Origin: Craspedostauros australis
Lineage: Eukaryota
DNA: 33,640 bases
Direction: 5' to 3'
Assembly (NCBI GenBank): GCA_030167865.1
Contig: JALAGF010000484.1
Location: 1 to 33,640, forward strand
This document shows positions 1 through 15,370 of the stretch, piece after piece. Both the position numbers and the translations under genes were made by a program. Under the pieces are notes generated by a model that was given only the letters and a program-made list of their open reading frames with translations, was not told the DNA's origin and made no database searches. Positions within the stretch are counted from its first letter, which is position 1; each line of letters opens with the position of its first letter.

Positions 1-2685
1 ACGAGGATTACTAAGACGTTGGAATACCCCATGGAGGCAATCACTCTTACCCAACGGCAGTGGGACTTCATATACGCGCCGATTTGGACTAAGGCCCTTC
101 CCCGAGGGGGTGTGGCCCGGTCGTTCCCAAGAGCTGTGCTTTACGGGCCCAGGGCCCATGGGGGGATTGGGATGCGCAACCCCGCGGTTTGGCAGCTGTC
201 GGTGCAAATACAGTCGATGGCTCATGAGGTGAACACAGGCTCCATCACAGGCCGAATGATCCAGCTGTCGATCGAACAAACCAAGCTTGAGACCGCCGGA
301 GGCGGACCACTTTTCCAGCAAAGCTTTGCCGAATGCAAGGGCCACATCACGCCGACGTGGGTGACCCAAGTGTGGTCGAACGCCCAGCGCTTCGGTGTTT
401 CCATTGTGGAGACGGGGGTGTCAATCGAGAGACAACGAGTGGGAGATGTGTTCTTGCTGGACAGCTGGCGCTGTCAGGGGTATAGCTCCAAGCAGAAGGC
501 GGTGCTCAATGAATGCCGCATGCAACTGGGGGTGGTTACCCTTGCGGATATGGTGACAGCGGATGGTACCAGCATCATGCGACTGGCCTTTGACGGAGTT
601 CAGGCGGGAACCCAGGGATCCAGCGGGCGCCCTCGCGTGCCACGGAAGCTTACCCGCAAACACTGGCTGCTGTGGCAAGAGTGGATTGAAGGATTGACGG
701 AGGGCCGCCATCTGCGCTTACGACGACGAATGCAGGCGTGGCTGCGGGATGACAGGGGGTGGTTGTGGTGGCGACGGCCCAATGACGACGGTGTCGCATG
801 GCAGCGGTTGGACTCCGGCTTCCGAGTGTGGCGCAGGACGCAAGGTCGGAGGGCAAGAAGGGCGGAGTTCCAAGCCACCAACGAGGTGAGCGCACGCCTG
901 CCTACGCATGCCCGGCGCTCCTCCGTCCAGTGTGTGAACCCCCATGGGGTGGTGCTCGCAGTGGTAGAAACGCCACGAATAGGGGAGACAGTGCCAAATA
1001 CTCCGCGCGACAAGCCCGACGGTTCAAATCAAGCCTGGGAGCGGGACCAGGTGTCGGGCGATGCGTCAGACGCGGAACTGAGAGCGGCCATTCGCAGAGG
1101 GGATCTTATGGCGGTCAGTGATGGCTCGTTCAAGCGAGGATTTGGGACGTCGGCCTACGTCTTACACATCATGGACTCCGGGGTGCAGCGCACGGGGTGC
1201 AACGTAGTGCCAGGGGCAAGGGAAGTGCAGTCGGCGTACCGAAGTGAACTAGCTGGAGTGGCTGGGGTTCTGCGTGAGCTCGTGGAGCTGGAAAGGGGCG
1301 GCGACCTCGGACCAGGACCGGTAGTGATAGGGTTAGACGGGATGAAGGCGATGGAGAACAGCAGGGATGGAGTGGCACATGTGGGCAGGCCGTCGTTCGA
1401 TATGCTAGATCATATCAAGGCGCTGCGTCGGAGGTTGGCTGTGGCGGTGCGTTTCCGGTGGGTGCGAGGGCACCAGGACGACCAGTCGGAAGTGCTGGAT
1501 CAATGGGCGCTTCTCAATGTCCACTGCGATTCGGAGGCCAAAAAGTACTGGGACAAGATGCAGCACAAGACACCACCCCAGTGGCGCAGCGACGGCTCAT
1601 TTGCCTGGAAGTTGTACGTGGGAGACATGAAGTCGTCTTGGGCGGCCGCAGGCATACATGATGCAGTGGTAGGCGGGGCGGTTGAGACCTATTGGGACAA
1701 GAAAATGGGGCGAGTGCGACAGGACAGCGGCTCTATTGAGGCCCACGGGCGCCGAAGTGCATGTGCGAGAGCATCCTGGAAGCAGCGGCTGTTTGTGGCA
1801 AAGATGTCCACGGGCTTTATCGGGGTCGGCGTCAAGCTGAAGCAGTACGGCGCCGAAGAGCGGTGCCCGTGGTGTGGGCAGGCCGAGTCCGTTATGCATG
1901 TGGTCAGGTGTTCAGCTTCAGGAGGAGGCTGGGAGGAGTGCTTTCAACAGTACGTGGAGGAGTTGGAGACCATCGGTACGAGTGGTCCGCTTGTCAGCTT
2001 GGTCTACTCAAGTCTTCGGGGGTTCTGTGGCCGTGCTGTGAGGGAGGGCTTCCAGGAGGAGGTTCCTGTGCGATGGTGGCCCGTTCTCATGGGCTGGATA
2101 CCGCGAGATTGGTGTGAGCAGCAACAGAGGTGGTTCGTGGAGCACGGGTCGGGACGGCGTTTCTACACCGTGGAGTCCTGGGCCCGCGACGCGGTTCTGG
2201 CAGGTTGGCGCTTTGTGCACAGCATGTGGCGGTGTCGTAATCAGGCTAAGCAAGCGGAGGCGGCAGTCCTCGCCGCGATGAGTGCGCGACGTGAGGAGCT
2301 AGAGGAGGTCACGGAGAGACACAACGGTTTCAGTGGGTGGGAGGGGTGCGACTTGGCAGTGGCCGGGAGTGGTGCTGCACCTAGTCCGTTGGCGGGGGCT
2401 GACACGAGACGAGCATGGCTTCGGTTTGTGCGCGCAGTGCGTGCACGGGCCCCGGACAATGTCGCTGTGGAGGCGGCGGACTCCGGCGGCAGTGCGGTCG
2501 GCTCGAATCCACCAGATACGGGAGGGTCAGGCGAGTTTGCATGGTACAGCAGGGAGGACGATGGCGACTATCGGGGCATTGTGGTCGACGATACAGACGC
2601 CGAAGGCGCTCCAGCCCGAGCACAGGCCGCCTGCGGCGGCCTGTGCAGGGCAGAGCGCCTTCGGCTGGGCATGGTGGGCGATTGA
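1..2685 (+). CDS. Non-LTR retrotransposon ORF2 polyprotein, C-terminal part (RT thumb/connection, RNase H, CCHC zinc finger); 5'-partial
   Basis: Frame is open from base 1 (TRITKTLEYPM...). Motifs: FPRAVLYGP...GGIG after the RT core; RNase H VSDGSF / SAYRSELAG / GLDG / WVRGHQD...LNVHCDSEAK with the D-E-D-D acidic set; CPWCGQAESVMHVVRC finger; MWRCRN. Confidence 0.9.
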   Translation, partial: TRITKTLEYPMEAITLTQRQWDFIYAPIWTKALPRGGVARSFPRAVLYGPRAHGGIGMRNPAVWQLSVQIQSMAHEVNTGSITGRMIQLSIEQTKLETAGGGPLFQQSFAECKGHITPTWVTQVWSNAQRFGVSIVETGVSIERQRVGDVFLLDSWRCQGYSSKQKAVLNECRMQLGVVTLADMVTADGTSIMRLAFDGVQAGTQGSSGRPRVPRKLTRKHWLLWQEWIEGLTEGRHLRLRRRMQAWLRDDRGWLWWRRPNDDGVAWQRLDSGFRVWRRTQGRRARRAEFQATNEVSARLPTHARRSSVQCVNPHGVVLAVVETPRIGETVPNTPRDKPDGSNQAWERDQVSGDASDAELRAAIRRGDLMAVSDGSFKRGFGTSAYVLHIMDSGVQRTGCNVVPGAREVQSAYRSELAGVAGVLRELVELERGGDLGPGPVVIGLDGMKAMENSRDGVAHVGRPSFDMLDHIKALRRRLAVAVRFRWVRGHQDDQSEVLDQWALLNVHCDSEAKKYWDKMQHKTPPQWRSDGSFAWKLYVGDMKSSWAAAGIHDAVVGGAVETYWDKKMGRVRQDSGSIEAHGRRSACARASWKQRLFVAKMSTGFIGVGVKLKQYGAEERCPWCGQAESVMHVVRCSASGGGWEECFQQYVEELETIGTSGPLVSLVYSSLRGFCGRAVREGFQEEVPVRWWPVLMGWIPRDWCEQQQRWFVEHGSGRRFYTVESWARDAVLAGWRFVHSMWRCRNQAKQAEAAVLAAMSARREELEEVTERHNGFSGWEGCDLAVAGSGAAPSPLAGADTRRAWLRFVRAVRARAPDNVAVEAADSGGSAVGSNPPDTGGSGEFAWYSREDDGDYRGIVVDDTDAEGAPARAQAACGGLCRAERLRLGMVGD

Positions 2686-2813
2686 GGTGACGCGCTTCCC
2701 GTGTCGGCACGTGAGTGGGCCCCAGCCCCAGCCGAAGACGATCGGGCCCGAACCCGGGCCGCCTCCGGCAGCTCGGGTGCAGGCCGATCGCCTTCGGCTG
2801 GGGCCGTGGGCCC
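2599..2813 (+). other. Two tandem homologous RNA hairpins at the 3' end of the LINE
   Basis: Hairpin 1 (2599-2665): gccgaaggcgctc/gagcgccttcggc plus gcacaggccgcc-tgc-ggcggcctgtgc. Hairpin 2 (2717-2813): gccccagccgaagacgatcgg/ccgatcgccttcggctggggc plus acccgggccgcc-tcc-ggcagctcgggt. Confidence 0.75.
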
Positions 2814-3103
2814 GTAGCAAGGCGGCCGTTTGGCGGGGACGGGTCTCAGGTCCGGCGCCCTAGGCACGGTGGTCGTCTGGATTTAGTGAGTGGGCGTGGC
2901 AGGCGCTCTTGTTTGTAATGCTCGACCTGGCCGTGGCCGTGCGTCGCGGTCGGGCGAGCCTAAAGCCCTCGGGGCACCCCTTTCTTGGGTTAGTCATTGT
3001 GGTTATTATTATTATTGTTGTTCTTGCGGCTGCTGTTGTTGTTGTTGGTCTTCTTCTTCCTTCTTAGCGAAGGCTGCCTTCATCTTCGTCGCCATGGTGC
3101 GAT

Positions 3104-3127
3104 GGTGCAAGGGTGCAAGGGTGCAAG
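3104..3127. repeat. Tandem repeat (GGTGCAAG)x3
   Basis: Read directly from the sequence. Confidence 0.9.
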
Positions 3128-3550
3128 GGTGGAATGGTATTACTACTATACATACAATCGCCAAGCCTTGAGTGCTCCTACATCAATGGTGTCAATGTGG
3201 AGAGGAACGCAAGAGTCGGCGGAGTAGGTATCAATGGAGCATCTGTGGACTATTGTCATGTGCGCCACTGCGACCACCATCATCGCTGTCATCTTCGTTG
3301 CTGACAATGGAACTGTTGTGGCTGTTGTCGTTGTTGATGTTCGCGGTTGGGACCGACTGCGGGTCCCGTCACTCAAGTGGGTCCTAGGTTGTTCACTGGT
3401 GTACGACTATATACATAATTTATGTAATTTACATCAGCCCCCACAAATGATGGCGCCAGGCGACCACGCATCATTCCACTGCACTCTGCATGAGCGGCGG
3501 CACGTCGATACGAGCAGAGTGAGGTAAGCTACTCTGCTCCACTCTACTTG

Positions 3551-4408
3551 TTACTCCTCGCCGGTCCTGCCCCAGAACATCTTTCGCACTGCCTTGGAGT
3601 TGCGAAATCCCGGCTGAGACGCGAATGTGAGAACCGCCACGAGCCTGGAGCAGCTGCCTTCGATCTTCGTCACGCGATGCAAGGATCTGGATCCTGCGAA
3701 CAGGGAGAGTGTGCCGACTCGGAAGTCCAACGTGTCCAGCCTTGGGACTTCCCCGTCCTCGTCGGCGCCCTCCAGTTCGGCGAATTTGACGCCACGGGCT
3801 GTCTCCTCGTACGCTGCGATGGTTCTGGCTGTGGTGGCGTAGGCCATGTCGGTTTTGTCCTTGCGGGTCGGATTGGTGTATTGGAACAGTCCGGACCCGG
3901 GCACTTCTGATTCTCGCAGCATGAGCGTGGTTGAGAATTCGCTTTCGTCGAAATGGAAGGCGAGGCGCATTGGTGGGCGGAACGCGTTCACGGAGCAGGA
4001 ACCCACCGGATCTTCGGATGGATACAAGGTGTCCATGCCGATGATCTTTGCCACCAACTTGGCAAGGGCGGGATGGCGGTAGATCTGCTTCAAGAGGACG
4101 CCGTCTGCCGGTAGCTCGTCGGTTGCGACGGTCGCCACGTGCGTTTGCATCTCGAAGTTCTGCACGGAGTTGGCGGGCAGGTCCTTGTTGACTGGTCGGA
4201 GGTAGGGCGTGTGCATATCATCGATCGTGAAAGCATCGGCCTCCACGACTTCAATGTCCCGAACGCATTCCTTCACGGCTGCGTCGGTGATGAAGTTGGG
4301 GAAGGTTACGGCGCCGTTCTTCACGAACGACTCGCGCGCCTTGCGGATCGCCTCGATGGCCTCGTCGGATTCGAGGTCGTTGAGCCATGGGTACTTTTCG
4401 AAGTTCAT
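3551..4408 (-). CDS. 2-oxoglutarate/Fe(II)-dependent oxygenase (BesD/HalD-related hydroxylase-type)
   Basis: Intronless 285 aa ORF. HxD...H facial triad (AFHFDESEFSTTLML ... SLHRVT), 2OG-binding Arg (SRLVAVLTF) and C-terminal FWGR typical of this bacterial-type family. Confidence 0.8.
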   Translation of the reverse strand: MNFEKYPWLNDLESDEAIEAIRKARESFVKNGAVTFPNFITDAAVKECVRDIEVVEADAFTIDDMHTPYLRPVNKDLPANSVQNFEMQTHVATVATDELPADGVLLKQIYRHPALAKLVAKIIGMDTLYPSEDPVGSCSVNAFRPPMRLAFHFDESEFSTTLMLRESEVPGSGLFQYTNPTRKDKTDMAYATTARTIAAYEETARGVKFAELEGADEDGEVPRLDTLDFRVGTLSLFAGSRSLHRVTKIEGSCSRLVAVLTFASQPGFRNSKAVRKMFWGRTGEE

Positions 4409-4522: not shown

Positions 4523-4882
4523 TATTGAAACGTAGGCGTGTGATGAGGTATGAAGTGGTTCGAATGATGGATGATGTATTGGAGCGAAGACACCACCCGA
4601 GTCCAAGTAGTCGGGAACACAGCAACAGACTGCGACAGACAGCAGAACGAAAACAAAAAGGAGCAACAAAAGCAATCGAATCAACACATCAAGCTCACAA
4701 TCCCAAATCGATAACTTAGTACACATCACTTCATACCAAAGACATCCACGCTTCAATATGATGACCGAAGTCTGTGTTTTTGTTTTGGGCGACCACCTCT
4801 GTTGTCGTGTGATCTGCTTGTCGGTATCTTGGATACGGTTTCCGACTCGTTCGACCGCACTGGTGCTGCCTTGGATCCAATA
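4523..4882 (-). repeat. 3' LTR of the copia element (about 170 bp plus a nested insertion)
   Basis: Bounded by TATTG...CAATA. Immediately preceded on the minus strand by GAAGGGGCG (4883-4891). Colinear with 6844-7034 once 4577-4763 is removed. Confidence 0.85.
4577..4758 (+). mobile_element. Solo LTR (182 bp) of a related copia family, nested in inverted orientation
   Basis: Termini TATTGGAGCG...CGCTTCAATA and a 5-bp TSD TGATG (4572-4576 and 4759-4763). Shares the start TATTGGA and CACTTCATACC with the host LTR read on the minus strand. Confidence 0.85.
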
Positions 4883-4891
4883 CGCCCCTTC
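4883..4891 (-). promoter_or_regulatory. Polypurine tract (PPT)-like sequence
   Basis: Minus-strand GAAGGGGCG abuts the first base of the 3' LTR. Confidence 0.6.
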
Positions 4892-5019
4892 AGGACATGA
4901 TGGGACGCATATTCGGAGGCGTCCTGGTCAATGTATACATATACGTATGCAATGCGTAGTTCACTGGTGCTTGCTTTTGCTTGTGGATCAGCTGGTGGCT
5001 TCATCGTGTCTTTGGTCTT

Positions 5020-6510
5020 TGCTAAGTGTTTCAGGATGTGGAAGAGTGACATGCGCCGGATGGTGTAGAATCTGTGCTTGGAAACTGGCTTTGTCAAGAT
5101 ATCTGCTTCGTTGTCTGAAGATGGGATGTGAACGAACCGTACTGCCCCTGCAGCGATGGCTTCGCGGATTCGGTGATATGCGATACCACAGTGATTCTTT
5201 TTGAGGATGCTGGACAGGATGGTAGTGTTCAGAACTACCGATTTGTTGTCACCCAACAGGAGAGCAGAACCGTCCACAGGCACACCGATCACACAAAGAG
5301 ATGTGCGTAGTTCCACGGTCATATCAATGGCAATGCGAGCAGCCACGAGTTCTGAGCCATAGGTGGATGACTCCACTGTCTTCTGGCGTTTGCTGAGCGA
5401 CCGCACAACCATTCCAGTGATCTTGGCCATGATGCCGGTGACTGACCGACGGGCTACCAAATTGTGTGCATGGTCGGCATCAACGAAGACGGTGATCTTG
5501 GCAGGCTTTCCTCGTGCTGTTGGCATGTTGTGAGGCATCTCTTCTGTGGCGTAAGGGTAATATTCCATCCATTTGTTGCTGTTGTTGCTTGGATAGGCAG
5601 AGTGGTCAGGTGGAGTAAGATCACACAAGAGCTGTCCGTTCCGATGTGTCTTGAGGTATCCGAACACATGTAGAATTGCCTCGTAGTGTCCTTTTCTAGG
5701 CGCCATTGAGAATCTGGAGAGCGCCATGGTTGCAAACTGAATATCGTATCGTCCCAAGGTGATGATCCAGTTTGCACTGCCGATGAGTGTGCGAAACTTG
5801 CTGGCCTCTGTTCGATCAAGCATGTCTGAGTCATCGGTTTCAGGATGATATGATTCTGCCATGGGAGTTGGGTAGCTTGGAAGTGATCGTTTGATCGATT
5901 CCTTGATCGTCTTGCACGCGCTGCCAATGTAGGTTCTGGCAGACAGTGCGGTTAAAATCCCTTCCTTTTGCCATGGGTCATCCAGCTGTTCGATGTTGCC
6001 ACCAAGGTAGTACATGGGTGTACCAACGCCCTTCATCACGTACTTTGCCTTGAGGACATCCATGATCTTTGTTGGGTCCTTGCTGAACACCAATACGTCA
6101 TTGACATGGGAAGAAATCATCTCGTAGTGGTCTCCTTGGGGTTGTATCCATAGGTCGGTGTCATGCTGGGTTGGTTGGAAGCCGAGGTCACAAAAAGTAT
6201 GAGCGAGATGCTCATGGAACCGAGCACTGGATGTGCGGAGTCTGTACAACCCTTTGTGGATGATCAATGGTTGTCCCTCCAGATCGTCAAACTCCAGCCC
6301 TGCGATGACATAGCAACGTTCATTGGTTGTGGCATACGGGAATGTATTGCCAACGTCGTCAGCACACACGTGGAGTCCGTTCATCGCTGCGATGACGAAT
6401 GCAATGCGCATGGTTTTGAACACCACTACTCCGGAATACACATCCTCAATGGATGGGTCGGATTTGTTCCCGTTTGCTACAAGTCTGGTTTTGTGGCACA
6501 GGTTGATGTT
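5020..6510 (-). pseudogene. Copia pol remnant: reverse transcriptase plus RNase H, catalytically dead
   Basis: In-frame HKTRLVANG (KARLVA motif, 6475-6492), DVGNTF, KGLYRL, YVDD degenerated to HVND (6097-6108), YLG; RNase H FVDADHA...RRSVTG, SSTYGSE, GDNKSV, NEADILTK. The ORF-track extension to 4753 is read-through into the LTR. Ends are approximate. Confidence 0.9.
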
Positions 6511-13165: not shown

Positions 13166-15370
13166 TCAACCCCGACGCTCCACGAGCTTATCAATAACGG
13201 CGAACTGCCGCGGCCACTTGGTGTTGTACAAGAACTGCCGCAAATCGAAGCGATTGTCATCGGGACTGTACCCCTCCGCATGATACGCCGGCGTCAACGT
13301 GCACATCTTGTGCCGATTGATGGAATAGTAGACGAAGAAGCGCTTCACCTTGACCGCCACTTGCGCCGCCGACAGATGACTCCACACGCCGAGCAATTTG
13401 CGGAACATGCTGACGGGACCGCAACGTTGCAATTTGCGCAAGCCGCCGTACAGTCCCAGTTCGGCGTACGTCATGCCCATCTCCTCTTCATCGAGCTGAG
13501 AATGTTCCGGCGACGACGTTTCTTCGACTTGCGGTCGCAGCTCGGCCGTGGGCGGGGCACCGGCAATCTCGGCCAACACCGGCCATTCGAAGTGATGCGA
13601 GGCCCACAGCAGCATGCGCTTCAGATCGCCCTTGGAGATGGCGCCGATGGGATTGAGATCGGCGCTGGAGCAGTCGTACTTGGTGAGGTACCCGCGCAGG
13701 CCCTCGTCGACGTTGGCCGATCCCAGGACGAGGAGGAATCCCTGATTGCCACGCACCCACGGCAGCAGCTGGGCGAAGAGGTAGGCCGTGACCATGCGGA
13801 TGCGGGCCTGGATGTTCTGCAAGGCCAGATCTTGTGTCATGGTGCCGCCGTGCAGCTGGAATTTGGGCAGCTTGCCCGTGGCCAGCCGGAAGACCTGGAC
13901 CATGGCGTCACACATCGTATCGATGGGCACGCAGAGGTGATACGCGCCGATGGTCTCGGCCAACCGTTGGGCACGTCCCGTCGTCGCCTGCGAGGAGTGC
14001 TCGGTCCCCAAGAAGACTGTGTGAAAGACGTGCGATGCAATCTCTTGCGAACTGGCCGGCAACCAATCGGATGGTTGCGCACAGATGCGGCGCACATCGG
14101 CCGCGACGGGTCCCGCTGGATTTTCGTTGGCGTGCTGGTAGGCCATCTGACACATGGCCCCGACGATGGTGGCCACGCTGGACGAGTCGGCGCCGCCGCT
14201 GAGAGGCAGGAGGAAACCGGACGCGCCGGACCGACGCAGGTAATCCCACAACCAGCAGGCCGGGCCCAAGCAGCATTCCTCCTCCGGCTTGTGGATATGC
14301 AGCTGGATGGGACTCGTGGGCAACCCGAGAGCCGTGCACGATGGCGGCAGCGCGCCGCCCTCCGCCGTCACGAGCTGGTTGGGACGAGCATCGCGCACAA
14401 GATGGACGTTCGCGCACGCGATGCAACCACCGTCCTGCGCCTTATCGGCCTGGATGCCGAAACTCGGAATGGAGGCACGGTAGCTGCGGACCTCATCGAG
14501 ATCGACCGTCGCCACGATGACCTCGACGTCGTCGACATCGAACTGCTTGGCCTGCGCCAGCACGTTGCCGTTGCAGACGATGATGGCGCCGCCGTCGTAG
14601 TAGCTCCGCCCGCCGTCGCATCCGCGCTGATTGGAATAGAGATAGACGCCGCCGCATTTGCGCGTGGCCGAGATCATGAGCTCCAACCGCTGATTGAGCT
14701 TGCGCAGCTCGTGGTGGCTGCCGGAGGCGTTGCCGATGATCTCGACGCCGCGTAGGGACAATCCAATGTGCGTGGCGGCCGGCGTCCATAGCTCTTCGCA
14801 TGATTCGCAGCCGATGGAGACGGGCGTGTTGCCGCACTTGAGATAGGACGTGCCGAACGGCGCCGTGCGCTGTCCGAACTTGGTCGCGAAGATGGGCGGC
14901 AGCCACAGGGTCTGGTTGGCGGCGTCGTTGCTGTAGGCCGTGAAGTATCGCGATTCGCGGTAGTTGCCGCCATCGGCATTGGCCAGCTTGGGCCGGATGC
15001 AGAGGATCTCGCGATTGTAGCACAGCACGCGGCAGTTGTAGCGCACGCTCTGGTGCACGATGGGCATGCCCACGTCGATGAGGATGTCGTCGCTGCCTCC
15101 GCGTTCGAGCAGCAAGGCCAGGGACTCCCAGCAGTGATGGATGGTGTCCATCTCGTAGAAGTGGTCCTCGCAGCCGTAGCCGCTGAGCTCCAGCTCCGGT
15201 CCCAGTCGGTAGGTGGCGCCGGCCTCGCGGGCCACGATGCAGCTGCGCAGCGTGCGTTCGAGGTTGCCATCGAAGTCCAGCGCCCATTGGTTCAACGTGC
15301 ACGTGGCCACCGTAATCAGGGAGGCAGGGTAGGGCGCGGCCTCAGCGCCGTCGTTGCTGCTGGTCGTCAT
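13166..15370 (-). CDS. NADSYN1: Glutamine-dependent NAD(+) synthetase
   Basis: Nitrilase-fold glutaminase domain (LNQWALDF, GPELELSGYGCEDHF, RPK, ESCEELW giving the E-K-C triad) fused to a synthetase domain (LLPLSGGADSS, QNIQARIRMV, YLTKYDCSSADLNPIG, NRHK). Intronless, 734 aa. Confidence 0.98.
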   Translation of the reverse strand: MTTSSNDGAEAAPYPASLITVATCTLNQWALDFDGNLERTLRSCIVAREAGATYRLGPELELSGYGCEDHFYEMDTIHHCWESLALLLERGGSDDILIDVGMPIVHQSVRYNCRVLCYNREILCIRPKLANADGGNYRESRYFTAYSNDAANQTLWLPPIFATKFGQRTAPFGTSYLKCGNTPVSIGCESCEELWTPAATHIGLSLRGVEIIGNASGSHHELRKLNQRLELMISATRKCGGVYLYSNQRGCDGGRSYYDGGAIIVCNGNVLAQAKQFDVDDVEVIVATVDLDEVRSYRASIPSFGIQADKAQDGGCIACANVHLVRDARPNQLVTAEGGALPPSCTALGLPTSPIQLHIHKPEEECCLGPACWLWDYLRRSGASGFLLPLSGGADSSSVATIVGAMCQMAYQHANENPAGPVAADVRRICAQPSDWLPASSQEIASHVFHTVFLGTEHSSQATTGRAQRLAETIGAYHLCVPIDTMCDAMVQVFRLATGKLPKFQLHGGTMTQDLALQNIQARIRMVTAYLFAQLLPWVRGNQGFLLVLGSANVDEGLRGYLTKYDCSSADLNPIGAISKGDLKRMLLWASHHFEWPVLAEIAGAPPTAELRPQVEETSSPEHSQLDEEEMGMTYAELGLYGGLRKLQRCGPVSMFRKLLGVWSHLSAAQVAVKVKRFFVYYSINRHKMCTLTPAYHAEGYSPDDNRFDLRQFLYNTKWPRQFAVIDKLVERRG

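Follow-up and report, generated by a model that had tools for sequence, protein, structure and literature searches.

Two related long hairpins in the 3' region of a LINE from the diatom Craspedostauros australis

The LINE reading frame and the hairpins at its end

The stretch of DNA analysed here, referred to as the window, comprises the 33,640 nucleotides (nt) of contig JALAGF010000484.1 from Craspedostauros australis. It opens within a long interspersed nuclear element (LINE), and the last codons and 3' untranslated region (UTR) of that element contain two long hairpins, hairpins 1 and 2, which are the main subject of this report. The features on which the argument rests lie on the plus strand and are as follows.

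1-2685, plus strand: LINE open reading frame (ORF), cut at its 5' side, 894 codons open to the window edge
1111-1542, plus strand: RNase H domain, with D374, E416, D446, H491 and D510 of the ORF
1864-1911, plus strand: CCHC zinc-knuckle-like motif, C622, C625, H633 and C637, invariant in 16 of 16 aligned sequences
2599-2665, plus strand: hairpin 1, stems of 13 + 4 + 12 bp, internal loops CA/A and GA/A, loop UGC
2683-2685, plus strand: stop codon TGA of the ORF
2731-2798 (core) and 2717-2812 (extended), plus strand: hairpin 2, loop UCC, one G-U pair and two mismatches (A-C/C-A)

A preliminary description of this DNA had assigned the ORF to an RNase H-bearing LINE, and the protein relatives and the modelled fold both bear this out. 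The ORF is matched by 18 proteins of similar length (E 4e-37 to 4e-17) and by 65 longer proteins of 1616-2077 aa (E down to 1.7e-83, 21-31% identity). The identity of the relatives to the ORF ranges from 22 to 36%, and with a best match of 36% there is no close relative in the protein collections. Among the 65 full-length relatives, PF03372 (APE) is precomputed in 18 and PF00078 (reverse transcriptase, RT) in many; the relative P0011 scored 36.1 bits for PF00078, above the cut-off of 29.6. In alignments with the relatives, the first ~300 residues of the ORF fall on the post-RT region; the RT core lies 5' of the window, and the APE region of the cut element is likewise outside it. As judged from the relatives, the family architecture appears to be APE-RT-RNase H-CCHC in one long ORF, and the order within the window is post-RT region, RNase H, CCHC knuckle, C-terminal helical region and a non-conserved tail. 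Ambal, the group to which such elements had been likened, is a Repbase non-LTR clade (PMC4455052, PMC5753468; these and the other sources given by PMC number are cited from excerpts of the papers), and the RT domain of the present element falls outside the window.

No Pfam model matched the window ORF, even at E 10, and a family profile found no match among PDB sequences. The five RNase H residues listed above are, however, invariant in 16 of 16 aligned sequences, and an AlphaFold2 model of residues 335-535 reached a predicted local distance difference test score (pLDDT) of 84.9 and a predicted template-modelling score (pTM) of 0.85. The top Foldseek matches of this model were all RNase HI (E from 3.7e-7, probability 1.00), and 227 PDB chains matched at E <= 0.001. 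The ORF carries a type 1 RNase H domain with the catalytic D-E-D-(H)-D residues present. With its 894 codons uninterrupted, the element looks like a recent, possibly active copy.

Hairpin 1 sits within the last 29 codons of the ORF and ends 18 nt before the stop, and hairpin 2 begins 32-46 nt downstream of the stop codon. The overlap of the first hairpin with the last codons had been recognized earlier, and it falls in a tail that is not conserved among relatives: similarity among them runs out near residue 825, and their stop codons follow some 25-45 residues further on, which in the window corresponds approximately to the start of hairpin 1 (residue 867). The 29 codons covered by the hairpin thus seem to reflect incidental read-through of G+C-rich 3' sequence, and the idea that they encode a conserved protein tail was rejected on the same ground. 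The hairpin-bearing sequence starts about where the relatives' proteins end and runs on into the 3' UTR.

Folding of the plus strand of 2590-2830 yielded the two long hairpins with a minimum free energy of -171.2 kcal/mol and a z-score of -9.28, and none of 200 shuffles folded as well (all fold z-scores refer to dinucleotide shuffles). Taken singly, hairpin 1 (2596-2672) folded at -65.1 kcal/mol (z -8.25) and hairpin 2 (2725-2803) at -62.5 kcal/mol (z -6.59), again with 0 of 200 shuffles as good in either case. All 29 pairs of hairpin 1 are Watson-Crick, with no broken pair and no wobble. Hairpin 2 has the layout of hairpin 1 but the loop UCC instead of UGC, and its outer arms reach 2717-2745 and 2784-2812 (29 nt, 86% complementary). 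Both hairpins and their 3-nt loops had been placed at these positions in the preliminary description and were recovered by folding and the shuffle test; the outer stems given there were too short, extending in hairpin 2 to the 29-nt arms just mentioned. When 1-3480 was scanned in sliding 80-nt windows with 30 shuffles per window, a z-score below -4 was obtained in 3 of 170 windows, all of them on hairpins 1 and 2. Hairpin 1 alone provides inverted-repeat pairs that are 100% complementary and mutually nested in the whole window, and neither the inverted-repeat scan nor a covariance model found a comparable palindrome elsewhere in its 33.6 kb.

Divergence of the two copies and retention of pairing

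Hairpins 1 and 2 belong to two diverged copies of an ~82-nt module. The best local alignment places 2599-2680 against 2731-2812, so that each module consists of the hairpin and a short 3' box. A blastn comparison of the two hairpins gave 78% identity over 73 nt, and the direct repeats D1/D4 showed 79% identity over 42 nt and 90% over 21 nt, with spacings of 132 and 133 nt. The sequence between and beyond the two modules is unalignable, and the contrast between modules that align at 78% and spacers that do not points to stronger constraint on the former. Tandem Repeats Finder did not call the module as a tandem array.

The differences between the copies preserve pairing, as had been proposed. 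RNAalifold applied to both copies returned 26 shared pairs, among them four double changes in which pairing is kept (C-G>A-U, G-C>A-U, A-U>C-G and A-U>G-C) and one G-C>G-U change. The first of these doubles is the change reported earlier in the outer stem, and the remaining three, together with the G-U, are those reported in the inner stem. Where a single mismatch had been counted in copy 2, we found two, an A-C in the outer stem and a C-A in the inner stem. Of the 56 paired sites in the 28 copy 1 pairs that can be aligned, 11 are different in copy 2, and the outcome per pair was four kept doubles, no broken double, one wobble and two broken pairs. If 11 changes fall randomly among the paired sites, the probability of at least four kept doubles is 0.8-1.5e-4 (three transition/transversion settings with 200,000 runs each, independent substitution assumed), and random dealing of the 3'-arm changes among pairs gave P = 1.7e-4. 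By these values, pairing was retained by a non-random process. Copy 1 shows no broken pair in its 29 bp despite ~20% divergence between the copies, the internal loops coincide in position, and both copies retain the 5' GA.

The remainder of the 3' region and the search for other copies

Downstream and around the hairpins, the 3' region holds a third hairpin, a short repeated box and a microsatellite.

2575-2587, plus strand: 13-nt box GGCAYNGTGGKCG, copy 1, exact, 12 nt upstream of hairpin 1
2668-2680, plus strand: box, copy 2, exact, within the ~82-nt module; its counterpart at hairpin 2 is 2799-2812
2863-2875, plus strand: box, copy 3, exact, in the 3' UTR
2920-2959, plus strand: hairpin 3 (40 nt), 5 + 12 bp with four G-U/U-G wobbles and a 5-nt loop
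2997-3047, plus strand: (TTA)4(TTG)n-like microsatellite at a drop in G+C

The G+C content falls from 0.63-0.76 to 0.44-0.51 where the microsatellite starts, and on this change in composition 2997-3047 is the probable 3' end or tail of the element. Hairpin 3 lies ~40 nt before that point. Its plus strand folded at -30.5 kcal/mol (z -4.42, 1 of 200 shuffles as good) and its minus strand at -15.9 kcal/mol (z -0.67), so the fold is sense-only, the sole sense-specific structure of the region, and it recurs when 2590-3010 is folded. Its significance is marginal given about ten independent windows in the 3' region. Hairpin 3 is nevertheless a better candidate for a classical LINE 3' stem-loop than hairpins 1 and 2.

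The three exact copies of the box all lie within 2575-2875; in the whole window, 1.17 occurrences with at most one mismatch would be expected. Exact copies flank hairpin 1, and a weaker relative follows hairpin 2 (2799-2811). Beyond the microsatellite, 3096-3131 contains 4.5 copies of GGTGCAAG.

Neither blastn nor tblastn detected a second copy of the element within the window, and the covariance model of both hairpin copies matched only itself when the window and three further loci were searched. These loci (L056, L057 and L058) carry distant relatives of the element on genome contigs, one copy per metagenome-assembled genome; viral contigs contained no protein relative. In L056, which is 30% identical and offers 950 nt past its stop, none of 55 80-nt windows had a z-score below -2.72, and the downstream region showed one weak 11-nt inverted repeat and no match to the covariance model. 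In the mere 82 nt available past the stop in L057 there was nothing hairpin-like. Neither locus contained a window with z below -2.8 or a comparable inverted repeat, and the L058 contig ends before the element's 3' end. Because it is absent from the 3' sequence of these distant relatives, the module is not a family-wide feature, with the proviso that one informative relative is a thin sample and that 3' UTRs are unalignable at such distance. A 123-aa ORF, on the plus strand of L056 at 1636-2007, starts ~110 nt after the stop of the LINE relative in that locus.

A metagenome scan with the outer-arm pattern returned 54 loci, in addition to one locus on a viral contig, all of them unrelated to the module. 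The metagenome loci are bacterial-looking coding stretches and other palindromic repeat families, and what they share with the module is the searched arms and not the inner stems. Palindromic repeats of ~66-71 nt with A+T-rich centres were observed many times in one metagenome assembly (L002, L006, L008, L010, L020, L024, L028, L034, L051 and L054), and also in L049. They are unrelated to the module, with only the 13-nt searched outer arms in common, and two of them lie 946 nt apart in L051. A literature search by title and by the start of abstracts, with subscription journals and Repbase Reports outside its coverage, found nothing on a 3' RNA element of diatom LINEs.

Possible roles of the hairpins, rival explanations and neighbouring genes

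Hairpins 1 and 2 are a real structure and probably a lineage-specific 3' RNA module of this LINE. Our leading but tentative reading, which we rate somewhat below even odds, is that they form a duplicated sense-RNA module, specific to the lineage of this diatom LINE, that may have been selected for protein binding or template recognition. A function as a cis-acting RNA element for ORF2 is plausible by analogy with known LINEs. Under such a scheme, each module in the LINE transcript would fold as a roughly 30-bp interrupted stem to which the element's own protein would bind, and hairpin 3, which folds only as sense RNA close to the 3' end, would probably be bound as well. Binding could then mark the RNA as template for target-primed reverse transcription, as in stringent-type LINEs, and the pairing would have been kept while the two copies diverged by ~20%. 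Transcription of the modules, their binding by protein and their part in template choice are all steps that we infer. A narrower version, in which the tandem ~30-bp interrupted hairpin is the specific handle by which the LINE protein picks its own RNA, is doubtful. If it were true, the same module should mark hidden partner short interspersed nuclear elements (SINEs) in diatom genomes, and a stramenopile non-LTR retrotransposon would for the first time have a defined cis-acting RNA element.

The 3' stem-loops of UnaL2 and ZfL2 elements sit directly before the terminal repeats. R2 and SART1 are site-specific elements with complex multi-helix 3' UTR folds, and the endonuclease of R2 is of a different, non-APE kind. 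Stringent LINEs need a 3' stem-loop that is bound by ORF2 and required for retrotransposition (PMC4176376), and the stem of eel UnaL2 must contain an internal loop or bulge (PMC1636434). The present hairpins are like those of UnaL2, ZfL2-1 and ZfL2-2 in placing a stem, interrupted by an internal loop or bulge, within the sense RNA of the 3' region of an APE-type LINE (PMC4176376, PMC1636434). However, the UnaL2 and ZfL2 hairpins are short and single (a 36-nt RNA was solved for UnaL2) and are common to partner SINEs, whereas here there are two tandem hairpins of ~67-96 nt and ~29 bp each, which lie partly in the ORF, differ in their loops and stand ~200-400 nt from the inferred end. The proteins of R2 and SART1 also need an RNA structure in their own 3' UTR for target-primed reverse transcription (PMC4176376, PMC11194090). 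The duplicated long hairpin of the present element differs from the folds of R2 and SART1, and the hairpin region matched them neither in sequence nor in Rfam.

Several observations weigh against selection of the sense RNA, and most of them favour a somewhat unlikely rival in which the hairpins are DNA-level quasi-palindromes without RNA function. An inverted copy would have arisen in the G+C-rich tail by template switching, in replication or reverse transcription, and would then have been duplicated, with later events copying arm onto arm so that the stems stay near-perfect. Perfect stems, and compensatory changes at several bases, can arise from one template-switching event, as has been documented (PMC8794818), and quasi-palindromes are mutational hotspots for such switching (PMC7202029, PMC3820800). 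Such hairpins resemble the present ones in their near-perfect inverted copies and in the clustering of their multibase compensatory changes (PMC8794818).

First, both folds are strand-symmetric, the minus strand folding equally well or better, at -66.7 kcal/mol for hairpin 1 and -71.3 kcal/mol for hairpin 2. In the latter, the positions of copy 2 that are imperfect in the sense strand (two A-C and one G-U) make the antisense pair slightly better (-71.3 vs -62.5 kcal/mol). The 29 pairs of copy 1 are all Watson-Crick, without a wobble, as is typical when an inverted copy arises at the DNA level, and the three unrepaired positions of copy 2 are all single transitions that show no sense-strand G-U bias. 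Given the strand symmetry, the lack of wobble in copy 1 and the A-C positions of copy 2, hairpins 1 and 2 give no sign that it was the sense RNA that was selected. Second, three of the four double changes fall within 5 bp, at inner-stem positions 1, 3 and 5. These three could be one event, and if so two independent doubles are left and P becomes about 0.06-0.08. The covariation also rests on two copies, both in one locus, and unpaired aligned columns differ at 6 of 11 positions, as against the 11 of 56 paired sites. Third, the loops of the two copies differ (UGC vs UCC), whereas the loop gives specificity in known LINE 3' stem-loops (PMC4176376). Finally, the module lies ~200-400 nt upstream of the inferred 3' end and not beside the tail, and the 3' sequence fetched for L056 and L057 is without it.

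What template switching explains is the persistence of pairing; it does not explain two copies with conserved internal loops in a LINE tail. The internal loops and the 3-nt loop have been kept in place in both copies and not filled in, and the modules are alignable while the spacers are not. In addition, pairing of both copies at ~20% divergence needs several separate events within 70 nt, and the window holds no other palindrome of this kind. If the hairpins are nonetheless only template-switch palindromes, they offer a clean case of clustered compensatory changes mimicking RNA covariation. If instead the duplicated sense-RNA module is a true recognition element, the stringent-type mechanism would extend from animals to diatoms, and the module would make it possible to search diatom genomes for active LINE copies and for non-autonomous partners.

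It is also conceivable, but improbable, that a sense-RNA structure was selected for another role, such as shielding the transcript's 3' part against exonucleases, slowing ribosomes as they near the stop codon, or localising or packaging the RNA. The placement of hairpin 1 within the last 29 codons and of hairpin 2 shortly (32-46 nt) past the stop would suit such a role, the distance to the inferred 3' end fits a priming-site element poorly, and hairpin 3 is the better candidate for terminal recognition. This explanation nevertheless shares the limits of the recognition reading, that is, two copies and strand symmetry.

A near-perfect duplex of ~30 bp could, furthermore, be cut by Dicer and serve as a source of small RNAs, either in host silencing or as a microRNA (miRNA)-like RNA, and a literature on small RNAs in diatoms exists (PMC4247016, PMC3155517). 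A comparison with Rfam, which the preliminary description had proposed, gave 11 matches at E <= 10, and miRNA-precursor models were the only ones to match. The best was mir-607, with 43 bits against a gathering threshold of 94 (E 1.5e-6), and all matches fell far below gathering, as is expected of any long hairpin. A structure that attracts silencing would moreover be selected against in an active element, and we regard a small-RNA source as very improbable. Least probable of all is a foldback or miniature inverted-repeat transposable element (MITE)-like repeat inserted twice in the LINE tail and unrelated to LINE biology: the modules are discrete ~82-nt units between unalignable spacers, and palindromic families with similar outer arms occur in unrelated metagenome contigs, but neither copy is flanked by a visible target-site duplication, no further copy lies in the remaining 33 kb of the window, and the metagenome palindromes share the searched arms without the inner stems.

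Outside the LINE, the window encodes a glutamine-dependent NAD synthetase on the minus strand (13169-15370), whose named matches support the earlier attribution of this DNA to a diatom. All are from diatoms, at 62-71% identity, except for one plant protein at 49%; they include Bacillariaceae sp., Seminavis, Cylindrotheca, Entomoneis and Epithemia, as well as Nitzschia, Chaetoceros, Thalassiosira and Cyclotella. Convergent with the LINE tail, a 285-aa ORF on the minus strand (3551-4408) matches Pfam HalD (Halogenase D, 36.3 bits). In the ESM Atlas, every neighbour of its product is a bacterial cluster of HalD/BesD-family iron/2-oxoglutarate (Fe/2OG) halogenases; the ORF is a bacterial-type gene in a diatom contig. 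A second retroelement lies beside the LINE in the form of a Copia-type reverse transcriptase fragment (PF07727 RVT_2, 47.3 bits) at 4753-6441 on the minus strand.

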